Below are positions 29,177 through 48,481 of a DNA stretch of 54,530 nt, piece by piece. Every line of letters begins with the position of its first letter. Position 1 is the first letter of the stretch. The position numbers and the translations under genes were made by a program. This stretch comes from Nanobdellota archaeon (GTDB taxonomy: Archaea > Nanobdellota > Nanobdellia > Pacearchaeales > GW2011-AR1): the NCBI GenBank assembly GCA_038045405.1, contig JBBSYF010000015.1, forward strand, positions 1-54,530, given 5' to 3'. The notes under the pieces are model-generated. The model was not told the DNA's origin. It saw only the letters and a program-made list of their open reading frames with translations, and ran no database searches.

Positions 29177-29187
29177 TATATCTACAG

Positions 29188-31573: not shown

Positions 31574-31945
31574 ATGAAGAAGCTAATTGGTTTAATACTG
31601 TTTCTTTCAGCATTCTTAATTGTTAATAATGTTTTCGGCTGGTTTGAACTTTTAATTATTCCTTCGACTTACGTAGTATATCTTCTGTATGTAAATGCCT
31701 TTGCGCTTTTGTTTGGAGGTTTCTTCTCAATGAAGGCACTTAAACTTAGAGGAGGCAGGATAAGCGTAATGATGGGTTTTGTAGCCTCAATTCTTGTTGC
31801 AGCCGTGATATTTTATTACGGAGGTACGCTCTTAGAGGGGAAGGATGGAATATTTTTTGGGCCAATTCTTGCCTTTGTGGATGTTATGATAGGGATAATG
31901 CAATTTGATTTTTTATTAATTTCTCCAACAAGAAGACTCAAGTAA
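31574..31945 (+). CDS. small polytopic membrane protein
   Basis: 123 aa with about 4 TM helices. Confidence 0.45.
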   Translation: MKKLIGLILFLSAFLIVNNVFGWFELLIIPSTYVVYLLYVNAFALLFGGFFSMKALKLRGGRISVMMGFVASILVAAVIFYYGGTLLEGKDGIFFGPILAFVDVMIGIMQFDFLLISPTRRLK

Positions 31946-32017
31946 AGAGAAGATAGGTTAAGATTAATTTTTCAAAATTCCAACAAGATTTATAAATAAA
32001 ATTTCCTTGTAAGAGAT

Positions 32018-32884
32018 ATGAAAAGAGGGCTGGGTGTTAATGGTAGTTCTATGAACAGTAAAAGACTCTCACAAGTTCGGTCTCGTTCGCTTTTACCAAA
32101 CCAAACGAAGGGACAGGTAACCGTTTTTATTATTGCGGCAATTTTAATTGTTGGTTTGGCAATGGTTGTTTATTTTCTAAGACCAGGAATAACATCAACA
32201 ACAGAATTTGATGAAAAAAATCCTACTGGTTTCATTCAAACATGTATGGAAGAAGAAATAACAAATGCTGTGAGTCTTGTTTCGCTTCAAGGGGGGAGTA
32301 CAAACCCTGAACATTTCATTCTTTCCGAAAGTAACAAAATAGAATATCTTTGTTATATGACTGAAGACTGCAGACCTTGCGTAGTTCAGCGAGCTTTGTT
32401 GAAACAACATATTGAATCAGAAATTAAAGAAGAAATTGAGAGTAGTGTTGCAAGTTGTTTTGAGAAATTAGTTGCAAGTTATGAAAGCGGAGGGTATACC
32501 ACAAATCTTGAACATGGTCCTAACGCAACAAAAGTTGAACTGCTCCCAAAGAGAGTTGTTACAAGCTTTAATTATACTTTAACAGCAACGAAGGCAAACA
32601 CAAAAAGGTATGATTCATTCAATGTAGTTTTGAACAATAATCTTTATGAATTAGTAAGCATAGCTAATAGTATAATCGATTCAGAATCAAATTTGGGAGA
32701 TGCTAATGAGAGATTTTATATGGACATATATCCCGATTTGAAAGTTGAGAAATTTAACCAAGTTGACGGTTCAACGATTTACATTGTAACGGACAGAAAT
32801 AGGGAGGGGAACAGTTTCCAATTTGCATCAAGAAGCGTTGCATTGCCAGCAGGTTATGCATGTAATAATGTGGCAACAAACTAA
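32018..32884 (+). CDS. type IV prepilin-like protein (class III signal)
   Basis: ...LLPNQTKG|QVTVFIIAAILIVGLAMVVYF followed by a ~230-aa globular part with paired Cys. The start could be an internal Met. Confidence 0.55.
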   Translation: MKRGLGVNGSSMNSKRLSQVRSRSLLPNQTKGQVTVFIIAAILIVGLAMVVYFLRPGITSTTEFDEKNPTGFIQTCMEEEITNAVSLVSLQGGSTNPEHFILSESNKIEYLCYMTEDCRPCVVQRALLKQHIESEIKEEIESSVASCFEKLVASYESGGYTTNLEHGPNATKVELLPKRVVTSFNYTLTATKANTKRYDSFNVVLNNNLYELVSIANSIIDSESNLGDANERFYMDIYPDLKVEKFNQVDGSTIYIVTDRNREGNSFQFASRSVALPAGYACNNVATN

Positions 32885-32887
32885 AAA

Positions 32888-34591
32888 ATGTTAAACAAAA
32901 AAGAGACGATAACAGGATTATTCTTTTTAGTATTCTTAATTTCATTTTTGTATTCAATACCCCAAGTGTCTGCAGTTGGAGAAACTTTTGTTTGTGCTGA
33001 AAAAACTTTAAGTGGTGCATGGTGTATGAATGTTCCAGAGAATCAAGCTAGTACTGCTATAAATCCTGTCACAGGGAGAGCTTACTCCGTTGCCAGAAGT
33101 TCATGTGAATCAACTTCTTTTTGTAGGATGGGAACTTGCGTTGACAACCAACAGGGAGAATGCCGACCAAATGTTCCTCAAAGAGTTTGTCAAGCTAGCA
33201 GTGGATTTTGGGTTCAGGGAAAACCAGAGGCAATCCCGCAATGCCAACTTGGATGTTGTTTGGTTGGAGACCAAGCCGCATTCGTTACAGCAACAGGATG
33301 CACGGCTATCGGTTCTCAGTATGGAGTAACTCCAACTTTCAATTCTCAAGTAAGAGACTCTGAATCATGTCTTGCTTTGTCAAATCCTAAGGCTATGGGT
33401 GCATGCGTCATTGATGACGGATTTCAAAGAGATTGTAAAAATATTGCTAATGCAGAGTGTAATGCTCTTCAGACTTCTGGTTCTGGAAACAGAAAAATAA
33501 CTTTTAGCGAGGGATTATTATGTACTGCAGACGTTTTAGCAACAAGATGTGCAGTGCCTGCTCCAAATAAAATAAAAACAACATGTGTCGAAGGAAAGTT
33601 TGGAGTTTATTTCTTAGATACTTGTGGAAACATAGCAAATATTTACGACGCCTCAAAAGTCGACGTTTCAAAAGTAATAAACAGAGAATATTGGACGTAT
33701 AGGAAAGATATAAGCGAAAGTTGTGGAGCTACTTCAAACAATGCAGGTTCAAAGACGTGTGGAAACTGCGACTATCAAGCAGGAAGTATTTGTAAACCTG
33801 TAAACAGGGCAACTCCCGATGCAACACCTCAACCATCATCTGGAGATTTTGTTTGCGCTGATTTAAGTTGTACATACAAAAATGAGAAATATCTTCACGG
33901 AGAGTCGTGGTGTGCAGGTAATTCTCCAGGAGCAAACGAGAATCTTCCCGGAAGTGAACATTATGTTTTAACATGTTATAGCGGAGAAGTTACTTCATCG
34001 CAATGTGATTCATTAAGACAATCGATTTGTCATGAAGACACAATCGAGGGTTATAGTGTGGCCGCTTGTGTAGCAAACAATTGGAGAGACTGCGTAGACC
34101 AAAAAAATAAAACAGTTTGTGAAGATGCTCAAAAAAGAGATTGTAAGTGGGTAGTTGGAAGTGCGCTTCAAATACCTGGACTTTCAGATAATGAAACAGG
34201 AGTAACTTATGTTTTAGATGATGACGGAAACCTTGTTCCAAGGGCAGGAAGCACGGGTACAGTTGGAGCGGCGTGCGTTCCAAGATATGCTCCGGGATTG
34301 AATACCAACACCACAGAAGCTGAGATTGCATGTTTCGCTGCAAGTGAAACTTGTCTTGTAAAATTCGGGAGACAAAACAGGCTTGACGACTGGAGTTGTA
34401 AATCTAATTGTCAGTGTCTCAAGAAAGAATGGGCAGACGGAAAAATAAATCAGTGTCTTGCTTTAGGTGATTGCGGAGTAAAGAAAAATTACTTAGGACA
34501 AAAGGGAGAAAGTTATGATCCTTTCACACAAGAAGGGGAACATGTAACAGGATTTAGCCAAAATCCTGTAAATGAAAGAAAATTCCCATAA
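32888..34591 (+). CDS. secreted cysteine-rich protein (~41 Cys in 567 aa)
   Basis: Sec-type signal LFFLVFLISFLYSIPQVSA, Cys spread through the whole length, no TM anchor. It starts 4 nt after the previous stop. Confidence 0.7.
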   Translation: MLNKKETITGLFFLVFLISFLYSIPQVSAVGETFVCAEKTLSGAWCMNVPENQASTAINPVTGRAYSVARSSCESTSFCRMGTCVDNQQGECRPNVPQRVCQASSGFWVQGKPEAIPQCQLGCCLVGDQAAFVTATGCTAIGSQYGVTPTFNSQVRDSESCLALSNPKAMGACVIDDGFQRDCKNIANAECNALQTSGSGNRKITFSEGLLCTADVLATRCAVPAPNKIKTTCVEGKFGVYFLDTCGNIANIYDASKVDVSKVINREYWTYRKDISESCGATSNNAGSKTCGNCDYQAGSICKPVNRATPDATPQPSSGDFVCADLSCTYKNEKYLHGESWCAGNSPGANENLPGSEHYVLTCYSGEVTSSQCDSLRQSICHEDTIEGYSVAACVANNWRDCVDQKNKTVCEDAQKRDCKWVVGSALQIPGLSDNETGVTYVLDDDGNLVPRAGSTGTVGAACVPRYAPGLNTNTTEAEIACFAASETCLVKFGRQNRLDDWSCKSNCQCLKKEWADGKINQCLALGDCGVKKNYLGQKGESYDPFTQEGEHVTGFSQNPVNERKFP

Positions 34592-34617
34592 CAGACAGAT
34601 AAAATAAAAAATATTAA

Positions 34618-36990
34618 ATGAAAAAAGAAATTTTTAGAAAAAGAGAAAAGATGAAAAAAGGTTCGATTGCTGTAAGCCAAATAATTATTTTAGTTGTTAG
34701 CTTGATTGCTTTTTCTTATTTTGTAGGAAGCGAGTTTAAGATTGTGAGTGCGGCGGACGTGTGTACTAGAAATAATGCTGGTGCACCAGTTAAAGTTCCT
34801 GCTGGAGTTGATGTGAACATTCAGAGTCAGGTAAATTCATTTTGTATGAGTTCTGGAGGTAGTGCGGTATGTGACGGGGGAAGTGGGAACTGGAGATTAA
34901 GAATAACTTCATGTACAACATTACCACCTACACCCCAATTACAAAATACCCCTGGAAAATACACTCCTTCACTACCTTCCACAATATCAACAGTTGCATC
35001 AACAGTCGACACTGGATTACGATTGAAGAGTGCAATAAATGCTAAGAAGGCAAAGGATTTGGCGGCGGGATTGACTTCCGATCAGTTTACAAACGTTGCA
35101 GATGCTAGTAAGACAGGTTTATTTGCAAAACTGGGGGGAAGCGGATCTAGATGGTTCGGAGGAAGTACCAAAATAGGACTACAAGCAATAGGAAAGAACT
35201 TCGTTTGGGCAGCAGTAATTTATTTCGGAAGTAACTTTATTATGAGAAGCATGTTTAATATGGACCCTCAACTTGCAAATTCAATTTCTGCATCGCTTGC
35301 CACAGGGTATATGGGTGCGACTGTTTATGCTGCCCTCAAGGGGGGATTTGCTGCAGGAAGTGTTGGAGGACCGTTGGGGATGTTTATAGGCGTTGCTATC
35401 GCAGTTGCGGTTTTCGTATTTACTGGAGAGACTAAGAAAGTAAACGTCGTTACATTTTCATGTAATCCTTGGAGTGCTCCTGTTGGAGGAAAAGATTGCG
35501 AGAAATGTAACACTGGAGATTTCCCATGCACAGCGTATAAATGTCAAAGTTTAGGACAAGCATGTAATCTCGAAAATAAAGGAACAACAGAGGAACTTTG
35601 TGTGTGGAAAAATAGAACAGATATCAAACCTCCAGTAATCAAACCTTGGTTAGATGTTTTGACAACAGGATATAATTACAATCCCGATGGAACAATCTCA
35701 CCCCCAGATACCGGAGTAAAAATTATTCCTGGAACAAATGTAACAGGATGCATTGCTCCATTCACGCCTATTACCTTTGGAGTTATGCTCGACAAACCGG
35801 GAAAGTGTAAGATAGAAACATCAAACAAAGGGAATTTTAGTTCGATGAGATATTTCTTCGGCGGTAGTTCAACATTAAAATACAACCACACAATGAGGTT
35901 ACCCGGATTCTTGAGTAATGAATCTTTGTTTGCAGAAAATGCAAGTATGGCTAATGGCGGAAGAGTTACTCTTTACACAAGATGTCAAAGTGCTAATGGA
36001 TACTCAAACGTTGCAAATTTCATTTTCAATTTCTGTGTTGACCAAGGACCAGACAGAACACCTCCAAGAATAGTAACAACGAGTGTTTTGAATGGAATGC
36101 CAATATCTTATGGAACAAAGTCTGTCCCATTACAAGTTTATGTAAATGAACCATCAGAGTGTAGATGGAGTCATCTTGATAGGAGCTACGACGATATGGG
36201 AAGTGATAATAACATGTCTTGTGTAACGGGCTCGACAGATTTCAACGCCCAGCTGCTTTATCAGTGTTCAACAACCCTTACAGGTTTAGTAGACAGAGTA
36301 GACAATAATTTTTATTTCAGGTGTAAGGACCAACCACATTTGAAGAACACTAATAGATCTGGAGAAAGAAATGCCAATACTGTATCTTACAAATTCGTGT
36401 TAAAAGGAACTCAGCCTTTGGTAATAGACGCTGCTGGACCAAACAATACTGTAATAAGAGATTCTACAAATGTGATAAAAGTAACTCTTACTGCTAAAAC
36501 ATCAGCAGGATTCAACGCTGGAGATGCAACATGCTCATACAAAAACATGGCAACACCTACTGGAGAGATGATAGGCTTCTTCAACACAGGAACATTCAAT
36601 CATTCGCAAGAGCTGTGGCTTCCAGAAGCAAATTACAGTTTCTATATTGAATGCGTTGACTTCGGAAATAATGCAGATAATAAAACAATAAATTTCAGAG
36701 TTGAATCAGACACTGCAGCTCCGGTAGTTGGAAGAGTTTTCAGACAAGAAAACAAACTGAAAATAATTACAAATGAAGAAGCACAGTGTGTGTATGGAAA
36801 TGTGAATTGCGACTATGAGTTGATAGATGGAACAAACATGAGTAAGGCGGTTAATGGAACTGAACATTCTACAGCATGGGATACAAATAAAGTTTTCTAC
36901 ATTAAATGTGCAGATAAATACGGAAACAGGCCTCTCCCTAATCAGTGTAACATAATTGCAAGGCCATTCGATATTCCTTCAGTAAAGTAA
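34618..36990 (+). CDS. large membrane-embedded surface protein (790 aa)
   Basis: N-terminal signal anchor, a small Cys domain, a hydrophobic block (FVWAAVIYFGSNF, GYMGATVYAAL, MFIGVAIAVAVFVFTG), then a ~520-aa Cys-containing ectodomain. Confidence 0.7.
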   Translation: MKKEIFRKREKMKKGSIAVSQIIILVVSLIAFSYFVGSEFKIVSAADVCTRNNAGAPVKVPAGVDVNIQSQVNSFCMSSGGSAVCDGGSGNWRLRITSCTTLPPTPQLQNTPGKYTPSLPSTISTVASTVDTGLRLKSAINAKKAKDLAAGLTSDQFTNVADASKTGLFAKLGGSGSRWFGGSTKIGLQAIGKNFVWAAVIYFGSNFIMRSMFNMDPQLANSISASLATGYMGATVYAALKGGFAAGSVGGPLGMFIGVAIAVAVFVFTGETKKVNVVTFSCNPWSAPVGGKDCEKCNTGDFPCTAYKCQSLGQACNLENKGTTEELCVWKNRTDIKPPVIKPWLDVLTTGYNYNPDGTISPPDTGVKIIPGTNVTGCIAPFTPITFGVMLDKPGKCKIETSNKGNFSSMRYFFGGSSTLKYNHTMRLPGFLSNESLFAENASMANGGRVTLYTRCQSANGYSNVANFIFNFCVDQGPDRTPPRIVTTSVLNGMPISYGTKSVPLQVYVNEPSECRWSHLDRSYDDMGSDNNMSCVTGSTDFNAQLLYQCSTTLTGLVDRVDNNFYFRCKDQPHLKNTNRSGERNANTVSYKFVLKGTQPLVIDAAGPNNTVIRDSTNVIKVTLTAKTSAGFNAGDATCSYKNMATPTGEMIGFFNTGTFNHSQELWLPEANYSFYIECVDFGNNADNKTINFRVESDTAAPVVGRVFRQENKLKIITNEEAQCVYGNVNCDYELIDGTNMSKAVNGTEHSTAWDTNKVFYIKCADKYGNRPLPNQCNIIARPFDIPSVK

Positions 36991-37108
36991 AGATTGAAAC
37001 TTGCTCACTGCGTTCGCTTAACCGTTAATAATAAAAGCAGTATGTCATTAAATCTAATTTAAGGTTTTTTAGTTAAAAGTTTGTTTGACTTTTGCTAATA
37101 GGGTAATA

Positions 37109-37117
37109 TTAATAAAG
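37109..37117 (+). promoter_or_regulatory. TATA-like box, leaderless-type spacing to the ATG at 37138
   Basis: TTAATAAAG is centred about 25 nt upstream of the ATG. The same 9-mer occurs at 25814-25822. Confidence 0.35.
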
Positions 37118-37137
37118 TTATTTCTGAATGTTATTAC

Positions 37138-37653
37138 ATGAAAAGAAGTGAAAAGGCTCTTGGTAAACAAGGAGCGATGGAAATGTCTTTTGGAATGATT
37201 TTTTCAATAATCTTAATTATCTTTTTTCTGTCTTTTGCCTTTTTCGGAATAAAGACTTTTTTAGGAATTCAAGACACTGCAAAAACAACTAAGTTTTTGA
37301 GTGATTTTAAAACGGATGTTGAGCAAGTGTGGAAAAGCCCGCAGGCATCTCAGGAAAAGGAATATACCCTTCCTTCGAAAAAAGAAAAGGTTTGCTTTGT
37401 TGATTTTTCGATTCCCGCGAAGGGGACTGACGGAGAAATTTACGGCGAGTTGAAAAGAGCATATTATGGAAAAGAGAATATGATATTTTATCCAGTAGTA
37501 TTTGAAGGCGTTGAATCTGTGCAGATTAGGTACATAGATTTGAGCACAATTACTGCAGATGCAAATCCTTTTTGTATTAAGAACGTTGATGGTGAGGTGA
37601 GTTTAAGATTAACAAAGGACTTCGCGGATGCATTAGTTACAATTACAAGGTAA
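37138..37653 (+). CDS. type IV prepilin-like protein (class III signal)
   Basis: MKRSEKALGKQG|AMEMSFGMIFSIILIIFFLSFAFFGI. Confidence 0.65.
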   Translation: MKRSEKALGKQGAMEMSFGMIFSIILIIFFLSFAFFGIKTFLGIQDTAKTTKFLSDFKTDVEQVWKSPQASQEKEYTLPSKKEKVCFVDFSIPAKGTDGEIYGELKRAYYGKENMIFYPVVFEGVESVQIRYIDLSTITADANPFCIKNVDGEVSLRLTKDFADALVTITR

Positions 37654-37700
37654 AGAGTAAGCGATAGTTTTAAATATCATACGATAATTAATAATATCAA

Positions 37701-38234
37701 ATGATAACAAAAAATATCAAAGAAAGGGTAAAAGAGCATTTTTTAAAGAATCCTTCATCAAAGCTAAGAGTCAGACAGATAGAACGAGAGTTAAAACTGC
37801 CTTTACCCTCAGTTATTAGGTATTGTAAGGAGCTTGAAAAAGAAGGCATTTTGAAAAAGACTGAGATATCTGAGACTGTTTTTTATTCTGCAGACAGGAC
37901 AAGCAAAAAGTTCATACTTGAAAAAAGGATTTTTAATATAAAGGAAATTTCTGATTCAGGATTGATTGAGTATCTTGTTAGTGAATATAGCAATCCAGTT
38001 ATAGTAATTTTTGGATCTTACTCGAAAGGAGAAGATACAGAAGAAAGTGATATAGACATTTATATAGAAACTCCGTCAAAAAAAGAGATAAAGATTGATA
38101 AGTTTGAGAAAATTCTCAGAAAAGAAATACAAATTTTTAAACAATCTAATCTTGTGCAGATTGAAAATAAACACTTAAGGAATAGTATAATAAATGGATT
38201 CTGCCTTAATAATTCATTAGAGGTATTCAAATGA
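37701..38234 (+). CDS. minimal nucleotidyltransferase (MNT) with N-terminal wHTH
   Basis: IVIFGSYSKGEDTEESDIDIYIE (GSx..Gx..SDxD) preceded by RVRQIERELKLPLPSVIRYCKELEKEGIL. Confidence 0.8.
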   Translation: MITKNIKERVKEHFLKNPSSKLRVRQIERELKLPLPSVIRYCKELEKEGILKKTEISETVFYSADRTSKKFILEKRIFNIKEISDSGLIEYLVSEYSNPVIVIFGSYSKGEDTEESDIDIYIETPSKKEIKIDKFEKILRKEIQIFKQSNLVQIENKHLRNSIINGFCLNNSLEVFK

Positions 38235-38683
38235 AAGATTCATCCTGGGAAGACTGCATTGAATCGAACTCTGCAATAAAGGTTACCCCAAATAAGCAAA
38301 AAGCTATGTCCTTAGTGGAGGTTGCTGAAGGCAGAATTAATGTTTTTAAGATGGATTTAAACGAAAAAACTGCTAATTACATTTTTGAAGACTATTACTC
38401 ATCAGTTTTAGAATTTGTCCAGGCAATAGTTTTTTTGAAGGGATATAAAGTGAATAACCATATTTGTCTAGGATTTTTTTTAAGAGATTTTCTAAAAAAA
38501 GAAGAATTGTTTAGGACTTTTGATGACTGCAGATTTAAAAGAAATTCCTTGATGTACTATGGAAAGAAGATGGATTTTGAAGTCGCGAAAGAAGCAATAA
38601 ATAAGTCTAAATCTTTACTTAGCGAGTTAAGGGTTATTTTAAAAGATGCTTTAAAATCAGAAAGGGGGAAAAATGAAAATTAA
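38231..38683 (+). CDS. HEPN-domain protein (partner of MNT)
   Basis: All-helical, 150 aa. The motif region is CRFKRNSLMYYG (RN...Y, with Tyr where many HEPN proteins have His). It overlaps MNT by 4 nt. Confidence 0.68.
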   Translation: MKDSSWEDCIESNSAIKVTPNKQKAMSLVEVAEGRINVFKMDLNEKTANYIFEDYYSSVLEFVQAIVFLKGYKVNNHICLGFFLRDFLKKEELFRTFDDCRFKRNSLMYYGKKMDFEVAKEAINKSKSLLSELRVILKDALKSERGKNEN

Positions 38684-39638
38684 CAAAACCCCTAAGAGGG
38701 CGCAGTTACAAGTTTCCTTTGCATGGATTTTCGCAATTATCGTCGGAGCATTTATTCTTTTTATTGCAATTTATAGTGCAACAAAAGTAGTAAAGACTGG
38801 AGATACTGGAGTAAGTGCAAAGGCAGGGAAAGAAATTTCTGCACTTTTAAATCCATTAGAGATAGGATTTGAAACAGGAGTTGTTATTTTATTAGCAGTT
38901 CCCGTAGAAACAAGAATCCATAATCAGTGCGATTCTTCGGGGAATTTTGGAAGGCAGGTAATAAAAGTGTCTCAAAAAAGTTTTAACACGTGGGCAGAAA
39001 CGGATGTAGAAGCCGGTTTCCCAAACAAGTTTATTTTCTCTGACGGCGTTGAAGAAGGAAGAAACTTTATTGTTTTTTCCAAGCCCTTTGAATTTCCGTT
39101 TAAAGTTTCAGATGTAATTTACATGACATCTTCAAACAAAAAATATTGTTTCTTCAAAGCACCGACAGAAATAAAAAAAGAGCTTCAGGGTTTAGGACAA
39201 GAAAATATCCTTGTTGAAAGCTTAGAGTGCCCTGAACAGAGTATAAAAGTTTGTTTCTCAGAAACTGTGGGCGCAGATTCTGGTTGTGATATCACTGTCG
39301 ATAAAATGCAAAGTTCTGTTGAGAAAAGGGGAGAGATGGTGTATTACGAAACTGATGCTTTGATGTATGCTGCTATTTTTTCAGATAAGGCAGTTTATGA
39401 ATGTCAAGTAAAGAGACTTATGAAAAGAACGGAACAGCTTTCTCTTTTATATGATGAAAAGAGGTCTTTGCTCTCCCAAAAAGGATGTCCAGATACTGTT
39501 GACCTTCAATCTTTAGCAAGTTCTGCTAATTCCATTACAAACTCTTCAACTTTGAGTTCACAAGATTTGTTTTCTGTTGCTATTACAGCAGATCAAGTAA
39601 ATAAACAAAATGATGCTGCGACGTGCACATTATGGTAA
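38673..39638 (+). CDS. type IV prepilin-like protein (class III signal)
   Basis: MKINKTPKRA|QLQVSFAWIFAIIVGAFILFIAIY. The start overlaps the HEPN gene by 11 nt. Confidence 0.6.
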   Translation: MKINKTPKRAQLQVSFAWIFAIIVGAFILFIAIYSATKVVKTGDTGVSAKAGKEISALLNPLEIGFETGVVILLAVPVETRIHNQCDSSGNFGRQVIKVSQKSFNTWAETDVEAGFPNKFIFSDGVEEGRNFIVFSKPFEFPFKVSDVIYMTSSNKKYCFFKAPTEIKKELQGLGQENILVESLECPEQSIKVCFSETVGADSGCDITVDKMQSSVEKRGEMVYYETDALMYAAIFSDKAVYECQVKRLMKRTEQLSLLYDEKRSLLSQKGCPDTVDLQSLASSANSITNSSTLSSQDLFSVAITADQVNKQNDAATCTLW

Positions 39639-39654
39639 CGAGATAAAATAAAAA

Positions 39655-40200
39655 ATGAAAAACCCCGCCCTAAAGGGCGAGGTATCGGATAAATAAAACA
39701 AACAAATGCAATCACAAATCGATTCAAGGTTGAGAAGAGTTAATGTAGTGAGCAACGGCTTCAGTAGTTGTGTTTCCGACGCTGCGAAAGAATTTTCCGG
39801 GACTCCAGAAATGTCCTTTTCGGAAATAATTTCTCAGCTAGGGATGTTTTTGCAACAAACAGAAAGCACTGTAACCTTTGAAAAGCTGAAGAGCTTTGCT
39901 GATGCTCATCGTGGGAGGAAGTTCAACGAAGAGATGGATGTGGTCAACAGCGACGTGAAGTTCATAGATTTTACACCCTTCACGATAAGCAACTTTTCTG
40001 ATAAAGAACTCACAGTCCATTCTAACTCCATAGAATTTCATAGGGTCCATAGCATATTTGCATTTCCACACGAAGTGGAAAGCATTTTGGCCGAAGCTAT
40101 GCTTTCTAGATTTCAAGTCCATTTTTCATCTCCTATAGCTCACGCTAAGTTTAGTTTAGTTTCAAGAGGGCTAGGAACTAACCCTAGCCTTTCTAGAAAT
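39655..40200 (-). mobile_element. IS200/IS605-family element (tnpA only), ends approximate
   Basis: A Y1 transposase gene is flanked by subterminal hairpins: CCCCGCCC-TAAA-GGGCGAGG (39663-39682) and GGCTAGG-AACTAAC-CCTAGCC (40169-40189). The region looks less AT-rich than its neighbours by eye. Confidence 0.6.
39724..40122 (-). pseudogene. tnpA: IS200-type Y1 transposase TnpA interrupted by one in-frame TAG
   Basis: ...HVAVDHIHLFVELPPTMSISKALQLFKGYSAFCLLQKHP-TAG(39838-39840)-LRNYFRKGHFWSPGKFFRSVGNTTTEAVAHYINSSQP. Both halves are in the same frame. Confidence 0.8.
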
Positions 40201-40420
40201 TCAAGACAATTAAATTTTGAGGGCAGCGATTCCTCCCAAAACTTAAAAGTTTGGGTATCCTCGCTGCAGATGTAATGAAAATGATAAAAAGTAAATTTTA
40301 TAAAGTTGAAAAATCTGTTTATTTTAGCAGTTTTAGGACTGTGAGTATGAGCCCCAGTAACTCAAAAGAGTTGCTGGATGTTTATTTTGTTTCTAAGTGT
40401 TTTAAGGAGGTTAATCTGTC

Positions 40421-40996
40421 GTGGAAAACACTTTAGTTTTTGTTGATGATGGTTTTTTTGGACTTGTTAAAAAACATTTACAAAAGAAAGATGGAAGAGG
40501 GAAAAAATATTTACAAACATTCCGAAATATATGCAAAAAAGAAAATTTGAACCTTAAACATTTATTTATTTATTCTGCGCCTCCTTATCAAAGTGCAAAA
40601 CCCACAGAATCAGAAAGATACTTAACAAGCCGGTATAATAGCATGATGAAAATGTTAAAGAACAAAAAGTGGGTAACAGTTAGAGAGGGGCGGTGTCAAA
40701 AAATCGTTGATGAAAATGGTAAAATAGATTATTCACAAAAAGGTGTTGATGCTCTTCTCATCTTAGATATGTATGATATAAAAGAACTGTATCCAGCGAT
40801 AAATAAAATAATTTTAATAGCTTCTGATTCAGATTTTGTCCCCGTAATTGAAAGAATGAAAAGCAAAGGAATAAAAATAATTCTTTACACTTATTTTGAT
40901 AGAATTAGAAGTTCTAAATTTTCTACCTCAAACCATCTTTTAGGGGTGGCGTCTAAATGGGTTAAACTAAATGAAAGTTTCTTTGAGAATACTTAA
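40421..40996 (+). CDS. NYN/LabA-like (PIN-fold) ribonuclease domain protein
   Basis: LVFVDDGFF, KGVDALLILDM and ILIASDSDFVPVIERMKSKGIKI. GTG start with AAGGAGG 8 nt upstream. Confidence 0.78.
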   Translation: MENTLVFVDDGFFGLVKKHLQKKDGRGKKYLQTFRNICKKENLNLKHLFIYSAPPYQSAKPTESERYLTSRYNSMMKMLKNKKWVTVREGRCQKIVDENGKIDYSQKGVDALLILDMYDIKELYPAINKIILIASDSDFVPVIERMKSKGIKIILYTYFDRIRSSKFSTSNHLLGVASKWVKLNESFFENT

Positions 40997-40999
40997 AAT

Positions 41000-41485
41000 A
41001 TGAAAATAAAACCGAAATATTTGTATCATGGAAGTGGAAGAAGATTGAGGGGGGATAAATTGATTCCGAAAAAAGCTAAAGAGCTGGATAAAAAAAACAA
41101 ACATAATGATTTCAAGGGAATTTATGCTTCTGATGTAAAAAACGAAGCTATTGCTATGGGAATCTTGAAGAGTAGAGGGGTTAAAGATTCAAGTTGTGGG
41201 TTTTATACAAAGCATGGCATTAAAGTTGAAGCAGTTATTTACTGGGGGTGGCCAGAACAAAAATGCTTTTATCTTTACACCTTACCTGCTGAAACATTTG
41301 AAAATAAACCAAGAGGTAGTCATCAATGGATTTCTTTTAAATCAATTAAGCCAATCAGAATAGAAAAATTGATTGTTAAAGATTATATTTATTTGATTAG
41401 GAAGGCAACTAAATTAGAAAAGAAAAATTGGATAAAAAAATATGGAAAAGGTGGTGAAAAAGATGATAAAAATAAAAAAAGATAA
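41000..41485 (+). CDS. hypothetical protein with a possible H-Y-E ADP-ribosyltransferase-like pattern
   Basis: YLYHGSG (H10), KGIYASD (Y42), KVEAVIYW (E77). This is a motif-level resemblance only. Confidence 0.45.
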   Translation: MKIKPKYLYHGSGRRLRGDKLIPKKAKELDKKNKHNDFKGIYASDVKNEAIAMGILKSRGVKDSSCGFYTKHGIKVEAVIYWGWPEQKCFYLYTLPAETFENKPRGSHQWISFKSIKPIRIEKLIVKDYIYLIRKATKLEKKNWIKKYGKGGEKDDKNKKR

Positions 41486-41756
41486 ATATTTAAGAAAAAG
41501 AGGTGGAACGGCAAAAGTAATAAAAGTTTCATGTGTTAACTGTGGATGTCAAATATTTGTTTATCAGAAAGACGGACCTGGATGGTTAAAAAGATGTTAT
41601 TTAAACAGAATTATTGAGCCGAAAAAAGAGGAGTATCCTGAAAAATTAAAGTGTAAATGTGGTGAATTAATTGGTTCTATGACAAAGCACAAAGATGGGA
41701 GGTTGGCTTATAGTTTGATTAGAGGTAAATTCAAAAGAGTAAATTACAAAGAATGA
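41442..41756 (+). CDS. zinc-ribbon protein, unknown function
   Basis: CVNCGC...CKCGE cysteine pairs. It overlaps both neighbours, and the start may be Met8 (41463). Confidence 0.45.
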   Translation: MEKVVKKMIKIKKDKYLRKRGGTAKVIKVSCVNCGCQIFVYQKDGPGWLKRCYLNRIIEPKKEEYPEKLKCKCGELIGSMTKHKDGRLAYSLIRGKFKRVNYKE

Positions 41757-42277
41757 TAAAATCTAAATCGGGACAAATGAAAATACAACAAATGGCTTTC
41801 ATGCTTATAGCCGTGACTGTTTTCTTTGCACTTGTTGGAATGTTTGTTCTTACAATTGTATTCTCAAATATGAAAGCATCCGCGGCCGTTCTTGAAGAAA
41901 AGAATGCATTGCTTCTCGCGTCGAGATTAGCAAACAGTCCAGAGTTTAGATGCGGAAATGCTTTTGGAACAGAGAGGGCGAATTGTGTTGATTTCGATAA
42001 AGTAATGGCTTTGAAAAAAGGTATAAAGAAGTACTCTCAGGCTGGTTTTTGGGGAGTTTCAAAGATAGAGATAATAAAGATTTATCCTACGGGTGCGAGT
42101 AGCAATGTGCTTTGCACTTTAGAAAATTATCCTGAATGTGGAAGGATAGAGATTCTTCCTGCTGGCGAAGGCACAGGAGTTTCAAATTTCATTGTTTTAT
42201 GTAGAAAAGAGTATAACGGAGGGCAAGTTCAAAATGTATGTGAGTTGGCAAAGATAGTAATAACATACAAAGGATAA
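41753..42277 (+). CDS. type IV prepilin-like protein (class III signal)
   Basis: MIKSKSG|QMKIQQMAFMLIAVTVFFALVGMFVL. Confidence 0.6.
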   Translation: MIKSKSGQMKIQQMAFMLIAVTVFFALVGMFVLTIVFSNMKASAAVLEEKNALLLASRLANSPEFRCGNAFGTERANCVDFDKVMALKKGIKKYSQAGFWGVSKIEIIKIYPTGASSNVLCTLENYPECGRIEILPAGEGTGVSNFIVLCRKEYNGGQVQNVCELAKIVITYKG

Positions 42278-42278
42278 G

Positions 42279-42836
42279 ATGAAAATGGGAGATGAAAATA
42301 TAAAAAAGGAAGGGCTTAGAAGCATAAGAGAATTTGAAATGGCTTGGAATGAGTTCTTTAAAGACAAGCCAGAACCAAAAAACGACGACGAAGATAGAAA
42401 ACAGCAAGAAGAGTTTCATAATTGGTATAACCATGTTAGAAAACAAAGTGATACTGGAAAAACTCCTGCTGAAATGTATAAAGAAATTTATGGTAAAGAG
42501 CCACCAAAAAACAATCAAGAGTCAAGTAGGGTAATGAATTTTGGGTGGGATGAAGGTTATAATGAAGATGATTTTGACGAGGGAGATAAATTAGATGATG
42601 CTGAAGAAGAAGCAGTTGGTATTGCTACTAAAATATTTGAAGATAGTTGGAAAAGAATAAAGCGAGAGGTGGAAGGGGTTAGCAAAAAAGAGATATGTAA
42701 GTATTCGTTTATCTTGGGATTTTTAGACTACATGAAAATGATGGATAAGAAGATGGAGATAATTAAAAAAGGGATGAAAAGTATGTCTAAGAAAGACATT
42801 CAAGAAATACTTGACAAATTAAATGAAAATAAATAA
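42279..42836 (+). CDS. acidic hypothetical cytoplasmic protein
   Basis: 185 aa, D/E-rich centre, no TM helix. It starts 2 nt after the previous stop. Confidence 0.45.
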   Translation: MKMGDENIKKEGLRSIREFEMAWNEFFKDKPEPKNDDEDRKQQEEFHNWYNHVRKQSDTGKTPAEMYKEIYGKEPPKNNQESSRVMNFGWDEGYNEDDFDEGDKLDDAEEEAVGIATKIFEDSWKRIKREVEGVSKKEICKYSFILGFLDYMKMMDKKMEIIKKGMKSMSKKDIQEILDKLNENK

Positions 42837-42908
42837 TGTGATAAACAAAATGGAAAAAGAAACTGTTAATAGTAAAAAGTTGTTTAAGTTAAAAGTAGTG
42901 GTTTAAAT

Positions 42909-43406
42909 ATGGACATAAAACGCAGTAAATTAAAGAAAAAAGGGCAAGAAGAGATAGTGGGCTTCGCGCTGATAATTATAATTGCTACAGTTATGATTCT
43001 TTTCTTGCTTAGTTTTTCACTAAGAAGCAGCAAGAAGGAGAATGTTGAAAGCCCAGAACTCACAAGCTTTGTTCAGGCTTCATTGCAATATACAACTACT
43101 TGTGAAGTAAATTCTAATAACCTTTCAGTTCAGAACCTTGTTTTTGAGTGTATTGATAATGGACTTTGTTCGGACAATAGAGACAGTTGTGCAGTTCTTA
43201 ACTCTACTCTGGCAGGGATTGTTGGAGAAGGCTGGAAAGTGGGCTTGGACAGGCCGGTAAAGGGTTATGAACTCTTAGTTAGGGGGAATAATAACAGTAT
43301 TGTAGCAATAAGTGAGGGTAATGTAACCGCGAACTATAAGGGAGCGTTACAGGATCTTGCAAGGGGTTCAAGTTCCATAGAAATCACGCTTAAGATTTAT
43401 TACTGA
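42909..43406 (+). CDS. type IV prepilin-like protein (class III signal)
   Basis: MDIKRSKLKKKG|QEEIVGFALIIIIATVMILFLL. Confidence 0.6.
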   Translation: MDIKRSKLKKKGQEEIVGFALIIIIATVMILFLLSFSLRSSKKENVESPELTSFVQASLQYTTTCEVNSNNLSVQNLVFECIDNGLCSDNRDSCAVLNSTLAGIVGEGWKVGLDRPVKGYELLVRGNNNSIVAISEGNVTANYKGALQDLARGSSSIEITLKIYY

Positions 43407-43429: not shown

Positions 43430-43798
43430 TTATTTCACAAATTCTACATTCTCTAGGTTTTCAAATTCTTTATCTCCAGTAAGGAATTTTATTCCTAGCT
43501 TTTTTGACATTACATAACTAATGCAGTCTGTCATTGAAACGCCACTGTCTTTCCATTTAAGTCTAAATTCCATAGCTTCTTTTATCCATTCTGGCTTTGC
43601 GTGAAGTATTGCCGACTTTAATCTATCGGTAATTTCACCAGAGTTTTTTGCTTTATCCCTTGCTAAGCTGTAGCATAGTTCTGCAAAAATAAAATCATTG
43701 ATTATAGTGTTCTTTTCAGTATATTTAAGATAATTTGGATTTTTATCAATAATTTCCATTAGAGCATAGGTGTCGAAAAGAAATGTGTCTTCACTCAT
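43430..43798 (-). CDS. vapC: PIN-domain toxin VapC
   Basis: FLFDTYALMEI (N-terminal acidic PIN motif), about 120 aa. It overlaps the antitoxin by 8 nt. Confidence 0.78.
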   Translation of the reverse strand: MSEDTFLFDTYALMEIIDKNPNYLKYTEKNTIINDFIFAELCYSLARDKAKNSGEITDRLKSAILHAKPEWIKEAMEFRLKWKDSGVSMTDCISYVMSKKLGIKFLTGDKEFENLENVEFVK

Positions 43799-44018
43799 TG
43801 TAAAGCTCTTTATCTGCTTCTTTAAGAAGTTGACTTATTGGTTTACTAAACTTATGGCTTCCAAAAATCTCTCTTAATACGTTGCCCTTTTGACTTTTTT
43901 TCAAAAGAACGCTTATTTCATCACCATTTTTCATTTCCTGTTGCTGAGCAATACCCAAAGGTATAACTATTCCAAAAGAATTTCCCCATTTTTGCAACTT
44001 AGTTTTTATTTCTATCAT
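43791..44018 (-). CDS. vapB: AbrB/SpoVT-fold antitoxin VapB
   Basis: KLQKWGNSFGIVIPLGIAQQQEMKNGDEISV (swapped-hairpin motif). Confidence 0.78.
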   Translation of the reverse strand: MIEIKTKLQKWGNSFGIVIPLGIAQQQEMKNGDEISVLLKKSQKGNVLREIFGSHKFSKPISQLLKEADKELYNE

Positions 44019-44062: not shown

Positions 44063-44413
44063 TTAAATCTTAATGTGGATTGTAACCGTATCAACAACAA
44101 TTGTCGGTTTGTGTCTAATCCTATTCTTTGTCTTTTCTTCAGAAAGTTCAATAAAACCAAACCTTTCAAGAAGCTTTAGATCATCAGATACTGGCTTGAA
44201 TTTCCTTCCAAGTTTCTTGGCAAGGTCATAAATTGAGCCTGGGTTTTGAGTCTTTATGACGTTAAGCATCCTTGCTTTTTCATTGCTTAGAAGGTGCCTT
44301 AGAGCAGAGATTCCTTCAAAATCATAGTCCTTTTTGGAGGTGCTTGACTTCTTAAAAATAGAGAAAGCTCCCTTCGATTCTATGATGGTTATTTCCCTTG
44401 TTTTTACTACCAT
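44063..44413 (-). CDS. winged-helix transcriptional regulator
   Basis: LSNEKARMLNVIKTQNPGSIYDLAKKLGRKFKPVSDDLKLLERFGFIEL. Confidence 0.6.
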   Translation of the reverse strand: MVVKTREITIIESKGAFSIFKKSSTSKKDYDFEGISALRHLLSNEKARMLNVIKTQNPGSIYDLAKKLGRKFKPVSDDLKLLERFGFIELSEEKTKNRIRHKPTIVVDTVTIHIKI

Positions 44414-44817: not shown

Positions 44818-47169
44818 ATGAGATTTAATTTTAGACAAATTTCTGCTATAGCGACTAGCGCATTGATGATTGGTATGACTGCAGGAGTTGCTGCCGCTGC
44901 AAGTTATCCAGCACCTTTCGTGTCTGGAGGAGTTGCAAATGTAGCTGTTGTTTACGGAACCGGAGCAGGTGTATCCCTTATTGATCAAGTTCAAGCGGGA
45001 ACAATCCAAGCAAGTCTTGGTACATTCACAACTGGAACGGGAAGTTCAACAGTTACTGGAGGAGATAGTGTTTTGATTGAGAAAACTTCCGACAAGTATA
45101 ACCTTGGAAATGATGCTGCTACTGTTTTTGTTTCAGCTGTAGATGGTGAAGATTTGCCAACTTTATTGGCAGATGGAACCTATACTGATGATGACAATAC
45201 AGAGTATGACTACACTCAAAAGGTAAACTTGGGAGCAAATCTTGACCTTGTACACTTCTCTGACACTGACTATGATAAAGCCATAGGAGCATCGGGTACA
45301 CCCACTCCTACGATTGGTATCCAGTTAGCTGGCAGTGCACACGTACTTAACTACACTGTTGACTTTACTACACATCCTGCGTACAATGCTGCAACCTTAG
45401 AAACAACTACTATGAAGTTGATGGGCAGAGAGTATTACGTACTAGATGTAATTAATGGTACAACAAACAAGACAACGTTCTTGGACTCTGCAAATTCCGG
45501 AGTTATAACACAGGGGCAAACTTCTACAATTGCTGGAAGAACTATTAGCCTTGAGTTCATTTCTTCAACAGAAGTTAGACTTGTTGTGGACGGAACAACA
45601 ACAAATAGTTTGGCTGAAGGAGCAACATTCAAGTTGCCTGATGGAACCTATGTGGGAGTCAAAGATATCCTATATGACTCAAAAGAAGCTGGTACTAGCA
45701 AAGTTGAAATCAGCGTAGGTAGTGGAAAACTGGAGGTTGAACATGGTGCTGAAGTACAGCTTAATGATGTAAGTATCCCAGAAATCACTGGTTTCTTGGT
45801 ACAAGACACATCTGAAAAGTTGGACAAAATAGTCCTTAAGTGGACTACAGATGATGAAGAATTCATCACACCTGCACTTAGTTTGACATTGCCTGCATTT
45901 GGAGCTTTGAAGCTTTCTATGGGAGCACACACTTTCCCTGCACAAGAAGGAACAAGTGTGGAGGGAAGTTCTGATACTATAGAAGTAAAAACAACGCTTA
46001 AGGATGGAGCTGTAACTATTCCAATTTTGGGTGCTAACTCCACAGGAGAATTTGCAACTATTGGAAAAGACTCGACTAACAGATTAGTAACAAACGATTC
46101 TGCTGCTACTCTTGGTAAGATATTTAACAAGACTGGTGGAGATAAGTATATGGTACTATCATGGAACTCTACTACAGAGTCAGAATCTTACTACTTGAGA
46201 GCTGATGTTGTAACAGAAGACACAGTTACAAAGGTAAGATTCACAAACGAAATTACCAATGCTGAAAAGACTGTTGCTAATGGAGATACTGCTTCCTTCG
46301 GGAGTGCAGATATAACTATTAACAACGTTACAAGAGTAGGTGGACTTTTGGAAAACTTCAACTTTTCCTTGAATGCTGGTTCAAGCATAAACACATTGTA
46401 CACAGCAGAGGGAATGAAGATTTTCTTACCTTATGAAAGCAATGTTAGCTTTACTTCTAACATTACTGGTGTGATCAACTTTACACCAACTGGAAACCAA
46501 AAAGCTGGTACGAACTATGATAGTTGGTACTTAGTCTTCGATACAGAGGATAAAGATGACAATATTGGTGCTGGAGATTCATTCAATGTAACAGTTGATG
46601 AATCAGGAACAACTAACAAAGTTCATGTACAAACAGTAACAACTGATTCGTCTTCCAAAGAGATTGGAAGTTCAGATAACTTTGAGTACTATGTGATAGC
46701 TGACTTAGCAACAAAGGTTGTTCACATGACAGGAGGCGATTATGACAGTGCCGTGGTAACATACCCTGGCGAGCAGTCATACGCTAACTTGTATGTATCT
46801 TCACCTGATACTGTTGTTGGCGGTGGAGCAATTGGAGAAATCCTTGTAAAAGACTCAGAAGTTAGCTCAGTAAGTTCAAAAAACTTAATCGTCGTTGGTG
46901 GTAGCTGTATAAATTCAGTTGCTGCTAATTTACTTGGCGATGGAGCTAGATGTGGGTCCGCATGGACTGCTGTAACAGGCGTTGGTACCGGACAGTTCTT
47001 AATACAATCTTTCGCTAAGGATGGAAAGGTTGCATTACTTGTCGCTGGATATGATGTAGCAGACACACAAAATGCTGTAACATACCTTAAGACAAAGACT
47101 GTTGATACTGCAGTTGGTAAGAAGTACATTGGTACTACATCAACAAGCGCAACACTTCAAGTAGCTTAG
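44818..47169 (+). CDS. S-layer protein
   Basis: Signal ISAIATSALMIGMTAGVAAAA, T/S/G/V/N-rich with few charged residues. The C-terminal NLIVVGGSCINSVAANLLG...VALLVAGYDVADTQNAV resembles the methanogen-type S-layer C-terminus. Confidence 0.78.
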   Translation: MRFNFRQISAIATSALMIGMTAGVAAAASYPAPFVSGGVANVAVVYGTGAGVSLIDQVQAGTIQASLGTFTTGTGSSTVTGGDSVLIEKTSDKYNLGNDAATVFVSAVDGEDLPTLLADGTYTDDDNTEYDYTQKVNLGANLDLVHFSDTDYDKAIGASGTPTPTIGIQLAGSAHVLNYTVDFTTHPAYNAATLETTTMKLMGREYYVLDVINGTTNKTTFLDSANSGVITQGQTSTIAGRTISLEFISSTEVRLVVDGTTTNSLAEGATFKLPDGTYVGVKDILYDSKEAGTSKVEISVGSGKLEVEHGAEVQLNDVSIPEITGFLVQDTSEKLDKIVLKWTTDDEEFITPALSLTLPAFGALKLSMGAHTFPAQEGTSVEGSSDTIEVKTTLKDGAVTIPILGANSTGEFATIGKDSTNRLVTNDSAATLGKIFNKTGGDKYMVLSWNSTTESESYYLRADVVTEDTVTKVRFTNEITNAEKTVANGDTASFGSADITINNVTRVGGLLENFNFSLNAGSSINTLYTAEGMKIFLPYESNVSFTSNITGVINFTPTGNQKAGTNYDSWYLVFDTEDKDDNIGAGDSFNVTVDESGTTNKVHVQTVTTDSSSKEIGSSDNFEYYVIADLATKVVHMTGGDYDSAVVTYPGEQSYANLYVSSPDTVVGGGAIGEILVKDSEVSSVSSKNLIVVGGSCINSVAANLLGDGARCGSAWTAVTGVGTGQFLIQSFAKDGKVALLVAGYDVADTQNAVTYLKTKTVDTAVGKKYIGTTSTSATLQVA

Positions 47170-47244: not shown

Positions 47245-47263
47245 ACTATAGGCATTCTATAGT
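47245..47263. promoter_or_regulatory. 7-bp inverted repeat ACTATAG-GCATT-CTATAGT, probable mazEF operator
   Basis: It lies between the TATA-like ATTTATAAA and the antitoxin start codon. Confidence 0.45.
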
Positions 47264-47899: not shown

Positions 47900-48469
47900 A
47901 TGAAAAAACTCGTTTCGAAGGAAGAGAAGGAAAGAGCAAGAAAAAGGAATCAAGTAGTAGTTGGGATTATCCTTGTTTTTTTGATGGTTGCAAGCACTCT
48001 TGGATATGCAATACAAGGCAACCTCGGGAATAACCAAGGTAGTCAAAATCCTGGCGAGTTAAATTACAACGGATTCAAGTTTACATACGTAAACGGATTT
48101 TGGACTCTTGGTAACTTTGTTTTCAGAAACAGCCCAGAGGACGTTCAGGATGTCGGTTTAGGAATTAAAGATGCGCAAAACTATCGGGGAAAGCCAGCTT
48201 ACATCCAATCTGAAAATGAAGAGGCTGGAATTGAAGCATCTTTAAACATGGGGCAAATTGCAAGCCGAGTTCAGGAGGCTTGTATTGAAAGTGTTGGTTG
48301 TTCTTCAGACTTTCCAGTAAAAACGTGTAACGATAACTTTATAATCATAAAAGAGAGTGAAATTGAAAGAGTGAGCCAAGTCGACAACTGCGTTTATATC
48401 GAGGGTAAAAAAGAAAACTTGGTGATGTTAACCGATGGATTTTTGTTCAAGGTTTTGGGAGTTAAATAA
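47900..48469 (+). CDS. N-terminally anchored extracytoplasmic protein
   Basis: One TM helix (VVVGIILVFLMVASTLGYA). It shares FxFRN[SD]P and a Cys pattern with the next ORF. Confidence 0.5.
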   Translation: MKKLVSKEEKERARKRNQVVVGIILVFLMVASTLGYAIQGNLGNNQGSQNPGELNYNGFKFTYVNGFWTLGNFVFRNSPEDVQDVGLGIKDAQNYRGKPAYIQSENEEAGIEASLNMGQIASRVQEACIESVGCSSDFPVKTCNDNFIIIKESEIERVSQVDNCVYIEGKKENLVMLTDGFLFKVLGVK

Positions 48470-48481
48470 AAGTAGATTAAA

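Follow-up and report, generated by a model that had tools for sequence, protein, structure and literature searches.

Five predicted pilin-like proteins and two large Cys-rich surface proteins in a conserved gene cluster beside the S-layer gene of a Nanobdellota archaeon

The DNA described here, which we call the window, is a stretch of 54,530 nucleotides (54.5 kb) from a Nanobdellota archaeon of the Pacearchaeales (contig JBBSYF010000015.1, assembly GCA_038045405.1). Our subject is a cluster of seven genes in its second half, named A to G in their order on the forward strand: five of them (A, D, E, F, G) code for proteins that we predict to be pilin-like, and two (B, C) for large, Cys-rich surface proteins. 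A first-pass annotation, made from the sequence alone, had seen here a set of proteins with class III (type IV prepilin-like) signals in a small-genome DPANN archaeon. The source was well guessed. Besides an archaeal RNase P RNA and a single tRNA, the window has genes for PCNA, the small subunit of primase, ribosomal proteins, an S-layer protein and the large subunit of RuBisCO, in the form used in nucleoside salvage; the named homologues of the locus proteins come, a few stray labels aside, from metagenome-assembled genomes labelled “Candidatus Pacearchaeota”, “Nanoarchaeota” or “Woesearchaeota”. The C-type protein also has an identical copy on contig CAYHFT010000002.1 (GCA_964356025.1) and on contigs of several metagenomes. 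The open reading frames (ORFs) that matter most are listed below (aa, amino acids; an arrow marks the predicted cleavage point). The pilin-like ones come from a motif scan, B from its sequence, and C from an AlphaFold model and a family alignment.

32018..32884 (+), A-type, 288 aa, pilin-like, first cluster gene; leader ...TKG↓QVTVF; 6 Cys
32888..34591 (+), B-type, 567 aa, secreted; Sec-type signal (…PQVSA↓VGE); 41 Cys
34618..36990 (+), C-type, 790 aa, membrane protein; 25 Cys
37138..37653 (+), D-type, 171 aa, pilin-like; leader …KQG↓AMEMSFGMIF (orthologues KK[RK][GA]↓QMKLSFGMIF)
38673..39638 (+), E-type, 321 aa, pilin-like; leader …KRA↓QLQVSFAWIF; 8 Cys
41753..42277 (+), F-type, 174 aa, pilin-like; leader MIKSKSG↓QMKIQQMAF; 6 Cys
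42909..43406 (+), G-type, 165 aa, pilin-like, last cluster gene; leader …KKKG↓QEEIVGF; 4 Cys
1504..2070 (+), a sixth protein, 188 aa, outside the cluster; leader KKA↓AMEMSVG

Relatives of the cluster were gathered through its C-type protein. A degenerate pattern, built from 12 sequences and run over one genome per GTDB species, found a relative of this protein in 276 species genomes. Eighty loci were fetched with 10-kb flanks, and the window proteins were mapped onto all ORFs of 88 related loci; presence is counted per 87 loci, many of which are truncated at contig ends. For four diverse loci, including the two that we call L007 and L008, gene calls were read with their Pfam labels. The arrangement that recurs is PCNA, then A(288)-B(567)-C(790)-D(171)-E(321)-F(174)-G(165), then a reverse-strand gene of the HVO_A0114 family, the S-layer gene, and genes for two N-terminally anchored proteins. 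This order is kept across dozens of related species at 35–60% identity, and it is the same in all four loci with annotated gene calls. D is present in 69 of the 87 loci, E in 66, B and F in 62 each, A and G in 61 each, the HVO_A0114-family gene in 59 and the S-layer gene in 42. Conservation of synteny among relatives, which the first-pass annotation had named as a check on its proposal, is thus strong across the 88 loci. The genes D to G stand especially close in relatives: those of L007 overlap successively by 4, 7 and 1 nt; L008 has three that abut to within 1 nt, and one overlapping pair. D-E-F-G is a tightly coupled sub-operon in these genomes. Between PCNA and A there are optional genes in relatives, namely an extra A-type gene and a larger paralogue of C (1200–1300 aa).

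What unites the five pilin-like proteins is the N-terminus. Every ORF of 60 aa or more was searched, in all six frames, for the pattern [KRQSDE][GA][QA] within its first 45 residues and, after it, a 16-residue stretch with a mean Kyte-Doolittle value above 1.8. The scan returned six ORFs only, those starting at 1504, 32018, 37138, 38673, 41753 and 42909, and these are exactly the six for which one shared N-terminal design had been claimed; their coordinates and sequences were confirmed. About ten other proteins of the window have N-terminal hydrophobic segments, and none of them fits the motif. This makes the design a specific one, which AT-rich composition does not account for. It has the parts of a class III leader, i.e., a short basic leader, K/R at −2, G/A at −1 and about 20 hydrophobic residues, with Q or S at −2 in two members here.

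The claim that these N-termini are of class III design is borne out by the orthologues of all five families, which were aligned with 58–79 sequences per family at 25–66% identity. The consensus is K-R-G↓Q-V-T-I-F for A, K-K-[RK]-[GA]↓Q-M-K-L-S-F-G-M-I-F for D, N-K-[KR]-G↓[YFG]-L-Q-I-S-F-A-W for E, K-[KR]-[AG]↓Q-M-K-I-Q-Q-M-A-F for F and K-[KR]-[AG]↓Q-E-E-M-V-G-F for G. Invariant columns are concentrated in the first ~25 mature residues (Q8, K10, Q12, Q13 and F16 in F; Q13, E14, E15, G18 and F19 in G). The strain of the window departs from its relatives in some details: the leaders of 37138 (K-Q-G↓A) and 41753 (K-S-G↓Q) differ at −2 from the K/R of their orthologues, and the leader of 32018 has an unusual length of 32 residues, compared with about 9 in orthologues. 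The small residue at −1, the K/R at −2 and the Gln at +1 match the site that EppA, a prepilin peptidase of Methanococcus, recognises; Gln at +1 is reported to be essential to this enzyme (PMC4390842).

The families are related to each other over their N-terminal 40–90 residues only. Profile-profile comparison (hhalign) of the N-termini gave probabilities of 95.9% for D and E, 94.1% for G and A, 79% for D and A, and 76% for F and A; once the N-termini were removed, every pair fell to 1% or less. Within D the relationship to E takes in the first 80 residues and leaves out the globular part. A common N-terminal helix with unrelated heads, as these profiles predict it, is the pattern of type IV pilins. 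Judged by their sequences, the five families appear to be built like pilins, and we would call them pilin-like by design and not by curated family.

The F-type protein is the one modelled from the five families. It has 741 homologues (563 representatives at 50% identity), and its AlphaFold model, from a 66-sequence alignment, has a mean pLDDT of 83 and a pTM of 0.65. The model shows a continuous helix at residues 5–60 (56 residues), two short helices and a four-stranded antiparallel sheet; a pilin has an N-terminal helix of ~50 residues and then a beta-sheet head, an architecture that the helix and sheet of the model may reflect. An exhaustive search with the F-family profile found full-length relatives only, with no bridge to named pilin families. 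One F orthologue bears the UniRef name “PilX N-terminal domain-containing protein”, which current Pfam did not reproduce on the 66 members, and we set it aside as a label only. Public gene calls start F at Met9 (166 aa), trimming 41753–41776 and with it the K-S-G↓Q leader; the leader is kept as K-[KR]-[AG]-Q in all 60 orthologues. Trimming of this kind by gene callers would hide the class III design from automated surveys. Six F representatives (P0348, P0415, P0433, P0434, P0444 and P0465) are 346–399 aa long with two matched stretches; they may have arisen by fusion with an adjacent pilin-like gene, or from gene calls run together. As for the others, the A-type protein has 79 orthologues and no match in Pfam, NCBIfam or the PDB, and the E-type protein matches no family and no PDB entry. 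The protein at 1504, which the first-pass annotation had counted with the locus, does not belong to it: it lies outside the conserved cluster, it resembles the D-type family in residues 5–39 alone, and no counterpart was found among the 88 related loci. It is a candidate for a separately encoded pilin that is not linked to the cluster.

The two large proteins are of quite different make. B has a hydrophobic segment at its N-terminus and no other, and by count it does contain the roughly 41 Cys residues first ascribed to it, some 36 of which are invariant or nearly so in a 36-sequence alignment. Its 839 homologues are all unnamed and free of Pfam domains, and no PDB sequence matches it. It reads as a secreted, heavily disulfide-bonded protein. 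C had been described as having a signal anchor, an internal block of three helices and a large Cys-containing ectodomain, and all of this is found in its AlphaFold model (38 sequences, pLDDT 79). The order in the model is an N-terminal helix (with a conserved, Sec-like …VSA), a small four-Cys domain at 46–100, a P/T-rich disordered linker at 102–186, three helices at 189–269, of which only the last is strongly hydrophobic, and then ~520 aa of Ig/FN3-like beta-sandwiches in tandem, which contain invariant Cys and have a pLDDT mostly above 85. Either both ectodomains would face outward, around a helical hairpin and an interfacial helix, or the chain would cross the membrane three times. Foldseek matched C only to multi-Ig/FN3 ectodomains, bacterial adhesins (Bap, SiiE), fragments of the GhpA grappling hook and a Bacillus S-layer protein; these matches are generic, and their TM-scores are low, as is expected of a multi-domain chain. 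Neither B nor C matches S_layer_C, and a kinship of C with the adjacent S-layer protein was considered and rejected (probability 0.2% for the C-family profile against the S-layer protein).

Many relatives have one or two extra C-type paralogues of ~1150–1310 aa (e.g., L007:3987-7655, L008:3365-7291 and L097:1-6941). In L007 and L008, the two of these loci for which gene calls were read, an extra A-type gene precedes the paralogue; the window strain is without such a pair. The paralogue of L007 has the same membrane block and the same C-terminal 520 residues, and differs in its N-terminal part, which is 640 residues long. C proteins would thus consist of a constant membrane-proximal module and a variable outer module.

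Beyond the seven genes the locus contains genes that are particular to this strain, and these are followed by the constant neighbours of the cluster.

37701..38683 (+), MNT nucleotidyltransferase and weak HEPN pair, between D and E (NTP_transf_2 E 5.9e-9; HEPN E 0.082)
39706..41756 (no strand assigned), insertion of four elements between E and F; not conserved, E and F overlapping in relatives
39838-40122 (−), truncated IS200 Y1 transposase (Pfam E 3e-16)
40421-40996, NYN-domain gene (Pfam), within the E–F insertion
41000-41485 and 41442-41756, two small genes within the E–F insertion
42279..42836 (+), 185-aa acidic soluble protein between F and G, this species only
43430..44018 (−), PIN toxin and MazE/AbrB-type antitoxin, after G (PIN E 2.6e-8; MazE_antitoxin E 3.8e-4)
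44063..44413 (−), HVO_A0114-family protein, 116 aa (Pfam PF25212, E 1.3e-16)
44818..47169 (+), S-layer protein, 783 aa (Pfam S_layer_C, E 1.9e-11)
47900..49126 (+), two proteins with N-terminal anchors, 189 and 214 aa, after the S-layer gene here and in relatives

Three insertion blocks, with toxin-antitoxin and mobile genes among them, separate D from E, E from F and F from G in this strain. The MNT gene with its weak HEPN partner, the truncated IS200 element, the NYN gene with the two small genes, the 185-aa protein and the PIN/MazE pair are missing from most relatives. The MNT/HEPN pair was found in just four loci besides this species, at the same D–E junction in three of them (L014, L049, L075) and between C and D in the fourth (L063), and this recurrence suggests a preferred insertion point. 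The PIN/MazE pair occurs at two loci outside this species, at a different position of the locus in each. Repeats or target-site duplications around the inserted genes were looked for, and nothing meaningful was found. A 189-aa ORF annotated on the plus strand at 39706-40275 overlaps the minus-strand truncated IS200-type Y1 transposase and is probably spurious. Together with PemK/VapB-like genes (~47260-47847), the MNT/HEPN, NYN and PIN/MazE-AbrB genes give this island of surface genes an unusual density of toxin-antitoxin or defence-type genes.

The insertions change how the gene junctions are to be read. The first-pass annotation had taken the abutting and overlapping genes as a sign of co-transcription; the junctions are real, but those at 38231, 38673, 41753 and 42277/42279 join a cluster gene to an inserted gene. 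Similarly, it had pictured the pilin-like genes as interleaved with others: B and C do belong to the conserved cluster, whereas the remaining interleaved genes are strain-specific insertions. A single uninterrupted operon is not what this strain has, since D-E-F-G, overlapping in relatives, is here broken by the three blocks.

The HVO_A0114-family gene, a probable winged-helix regulator by its sequence, lies divergently between the cluster and the S-layer gene, with the same position and strand in its 59 loci; the S-layer gene is the constant downstream neighbour of the cluster. At the other end, a helix-turn-helix protein of 61–65 aa heads the cluster in L007 (3014-3211) and L008 (2363-2548), overlapping the first A-type gene, and where relatives carry this gene the window has a strain-specific 123-aa four-helix membrane protein (31574-31945). 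Further upstream, a 179-aa protein (23336-23875, +) combines an HHH_3 domain (ComEA-like, DNA-binding; E 1.4e-13) with a Sec signal and a hydrophobic segment at its C-terminus; an HHH_3 gene stands at the equivalent place in L098, and the 179-aa protein may be a DNA receptor within this syntenic region of surface genes. Next to the primase gene, here and in ~20 related loci, is a gene for a 629-aa protein (27302-29191, −) with a signal peptide, 30 Cys, a C-terminal membrane segment and no family match; it was considered as a paralogue of B and rejected, no relationship being found. The window also holds a homing-endonuclease-like gene with NUMOD3 and Vsr/DUF559 domains (22116-22889, +), a further uncharacterised surface protein of 556 aa, secreted and with weak CARDB/fn3/A2M-type matches (51697-53367, −), and two polytopic membrane proteins without a family match (539-1165 and 49769-50362, both −). 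The second of these has 197 aa and five helices, and by eye a Cys…Arg…His series (…IEACIAGS…, …NILRIF…, …IAHVVF…) that may resemble the active sites of archaeosortases and exosortases.

The cluster is probably an uncharacterised adhesion device. The reading that we favour, to which we give about an even chance, is that of a minor-pilin-plus-adhesin module for host attachment whose machinery is encoded elsewhere. The five precursors would enter the membrane, their basic leaders staying on the cytoplasmic side, and an EppA/PibD-type prepilin peptidase, encoded elsewhere, would cut them after the conserved G/A to expose the +1 Gln (or Ala/aromatic residue). Their N-terminal helices could then bundle into a short filament or a tip/priming complex, comparable to the sets of minor pilins in type II secretion systems and bacterial type IV pili or to EpdA-D of Methanococcus, and assembled by a filament ATPase and platform that would also come from elsewhere. 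Such a filament or tip complex would cross the S-layer and present or dock the ectodomains of B and C as its adhesive end, the most plausible purpose of which would be attachment to a host cell. Distinct pilin-like genes in a fixed order, with a large non-pilin surface protein encoded beside them, are what one looks for in a module of minor pilins and a tip adhesin, and the cluster has them.

In design the cluster resembles known pilin/adhesin modules; it differs from them in that its proteins fall in no curated families, that it is fixed beside an S-layer gene, that one of its large proteins is embedded in the membrane and that no machinery is nearby. The closest parallel for the leaders is found in the Epd pili of Methanococcus maripaludis (EpdA-E, EppA), which share the short basic leader, the K/R-G↓Q site and the +1 Gln, and in which several different minor pilins are encoded together, all of them required. 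A recent survey reports an Epd-like “system 1”, as well as other filament systems, in some DPANN (bioRxiv 10.64898/2026.04.22.720090). However, the Epd locus holds an ATPase, two platform genes and the peptidase, of which the cluster has none within 10 kb; Epd pilins fall in curated families of the class-III/DUF361 type, whereas the cluster proteins match no curated family, and no link in sequence or fold was found; and the major Epd pilin lacks a globular domain, which all five cluster proteins have. In bacteria, the minor-pilin modules FimU-PilVWX-PilY1 (type IV pili) and GspH-I-J-K (type II secretion) likewise consist of four or five pilin-like genes in a fixed order, related in their N-terminal helices alone, beside a large non-pilin surface protein, and they too can be encoded away from the ATPase and platform genes. 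Here the differences are the lack of homology, the absence of a Glu at +5 from the cluster proteins, and the setting in an archaeal envelope with an S-layer. B and C are also unlike PilY1: no vWA domain or beta-propeller was detected in them, and there was no match to PilY1-type adhesins in Pfam, NCBIfam or PDB sequences, B being disulfide-rich and secreted and C a membrane-embedded protein with a tandem Ig/FN3-like fold.

C may also be compared with the Ig-rich adhesin-like or S-layer-like proteins that recur as accessories of archaeal type IV filament loci (PMC4858521), such as arCOG05616, arCOG07037 and arCOG05057 (Makarova et al. 2016; 2026 TFF preprint). The ectodomain of C is a string of Ig/FN3-like domains, and its gene is linked to pilin-like and S-layer genes, the likeness being one of fold and gene linkage. 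Unlike C, however, those accessories adjoin ATPase and platform genes, and the internal three-helix membrane block and the variable N-terminal ectodomain set C apart. The Sulfolobus bindosome, lastly, in which sugar-binding proteins carry class III signals, shows class-III-type N-termini on sizeable globular proteins with no need of a long filament; the cluster differs from it in having neither solute-binding domains nor, in its vicinity, an ABC transporter or Bas assembly genes.

There is a good deal that weighs against a pilin-based module, and it is best told together. By eye, and against the published FlaFind pattern, which is not known to allow charged or polar residues at +2 and +3, the A-type protein alone would pass, since D, E, F, G and the protein at 1504 have K, E or Q at +2 or +3; we take this as a lead and not as a test. 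No window protein matches a curated class-III or pilin N-terminal model (Pfam Class_IIIsignal, archaeal Pilin_N; NCBIfam archaeal flagellin N-terminal-like) at E ≤ 1, and none of 161 orthologues of D, E, F and G does so at E ≤ 0.1; DUF7248, DUF7287 and DUF7289 are matched weakly, below threshold, by a few orthologues of D and G. Family profiles of A to G, compared with all PDB sequences, found nothing below E 0.1 and no pilin, and Foldseek of the F model against the PDB found no solved pilin (best E 0.29). The first-pass annotation was right in that no mature part matches a characterised family; of the checks that it had proposed, the pilin models went against it, and Foldseek on the one pilin-like member that was modelled gave no solved pilin. 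Moreover, none of the five pilin-like proteins stands out as a major, filament-forming pilin.

Then there is the matter of the machinery, which had already been noticed as lacking in the window. Pfam scans of 56 different window ORFs, including all ORFs above 210 aa and all polytopic membrane proteins, confirm this: no T2SSE/FlaI ATPase, T2SSF/FlaJ platform or A24 peptidase was found, and the GxGD motif is in neither of the two polytopic proteins without a family. Nor was there a T2SSE-type Walker A ATPase in the ORFs of the 88 related loci (within 10 kb), or an ATPase, platform or peptidase family among the Pfam-labelled neighbours in the four diverse loci. Contigs of a sister strain that extend the window by ~10 kb to the left and ~3.6 kb to the right carried ribosomal genes, transposases and an island of small ORFs with two T4SS_pilin genes, and no filament machinery. 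The island, left of the window (L089:11180-20627), consists of two rve-family transposases, about 20 small ORFs, the two T4SS_pilin (PF18895) genes and then an IS200, and may be an integrated mobile element. A groundwater study, finally, stated that DPANN genomes lack the components of type IV pili (bioRxiv 2020.05.14.094862). The same work describes Pacearchaeota as unusually firmly attached to their hosts. Others have reported FlaIJK-type pili from Micrarchaeota, Diapherotrites, Nanoarchaeum and Undinarchaeota, and in surveys of archaea the genes for pilin sets often lie away from those for the ATPase and platform. Our literature searches found no description of the A–G cluster.

The alternative that survives best, which we hold to be somewhat unlikely, makes the cluster a membrane-anchored envelope complex with no filament at all: uncleaved helices would pair with the helices of C and, with B, make up a scaffold by which the S-layer is organised, anchored or opened locally. 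It would account for the constant position of the cluster beside the S-layer gene and the two downstream anchored proteins, for the 88 loci without filament machinery nearby, for the published claim of missing pilus components and for the failure of pilin models and solved pilins to match; the conserved membrane block of C could pair with conserved helices. It is less at ease with the N-termini. A plain signal anchor gives no reason for a small −1, a K/R at −2 and a Gln at +1 in five otherwise unrelated families, and the helix of F runs ~25 residues past its hydrophobic part, like the alpha-1 of a pilin. The two anchored proteins after the S-layer gene, which match no Pfam family, have Asn at −1 and thus no class III design, so the motif is not general to the anchors of this organism.

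It is also possible, though unlikely, that we are dealing with an envelope organelle peculiar to Pacearchaeota-type DPANN, in which a pilin-like helical bundle, coupled both genetically and physically to the S-layer, would assemble without a dedicated ATPase or platform, or with a highly divergent one, and B and C would serve host attachment and recognition. Quite improbable, in our view, is a device for uptake, akin to a bindosome or a pseudopilus, in which binding proteins on a short membrane structure would capture substrates such as DNA or nucleotides and not a host. Class III signals on large globular proteins such as A (288 aa) and E (321 aa) do recall the Sulfolobus bindosome, the ComEA-like HHH_3 gene lies in the syntenic region, the RuBisCO is of the nucleoside-salvage form, and DNA import via pili has been proposed for other DPANN. 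However, solute-binding, DNA-binding or nuclease domains cannot be detected in the cluster proteins, the four diverse loci have neither an ABC transporter nor ComEC adjacent to the cluster, and the ComEA-like gene is 8 kb off, beyond the primase and PCNA genes. DNA capture, which the first-pass annotation had offered beside host attachment, finds no specific support apart from that gene. That the proteins form no system, being unrelated, together by chance and alike in their N-termini through composition, is hardly credible: no member has a family assignment and the window version is interrupted by unrelated genes, but the motif is confined to six ORFs of the window, the N-terminal profile-profile probabilities reach 94–96%, and the gene order is kept, with overlapping genes, in dozens of species, a conserved synteny that excludes chance as the explanation.

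Among the DPANN archaea of groundwater and lakes, Pacearchaeota rank with the most reduced and the most abundant. To our knowledge no member has been cultivated. The cluster offers a seven-gene surface set that is found lineage-wide, with hundreds of orthologues per gene and no annotation, and which can be tested for a role in host attachment. A determinant of host recognition would be expected to look like the C-type proteins, with their variable N-terminal ectodomain and their duplicates in many relatives. All members are labelled “hypothetical”, and surveys based on KEGG or Pfam would therefore miss the cluster. Should it prove that these genomes have neither filament ATPases nor prepilin peptidases, we would have here pilin-type proteins at work outside the canonical machinery.

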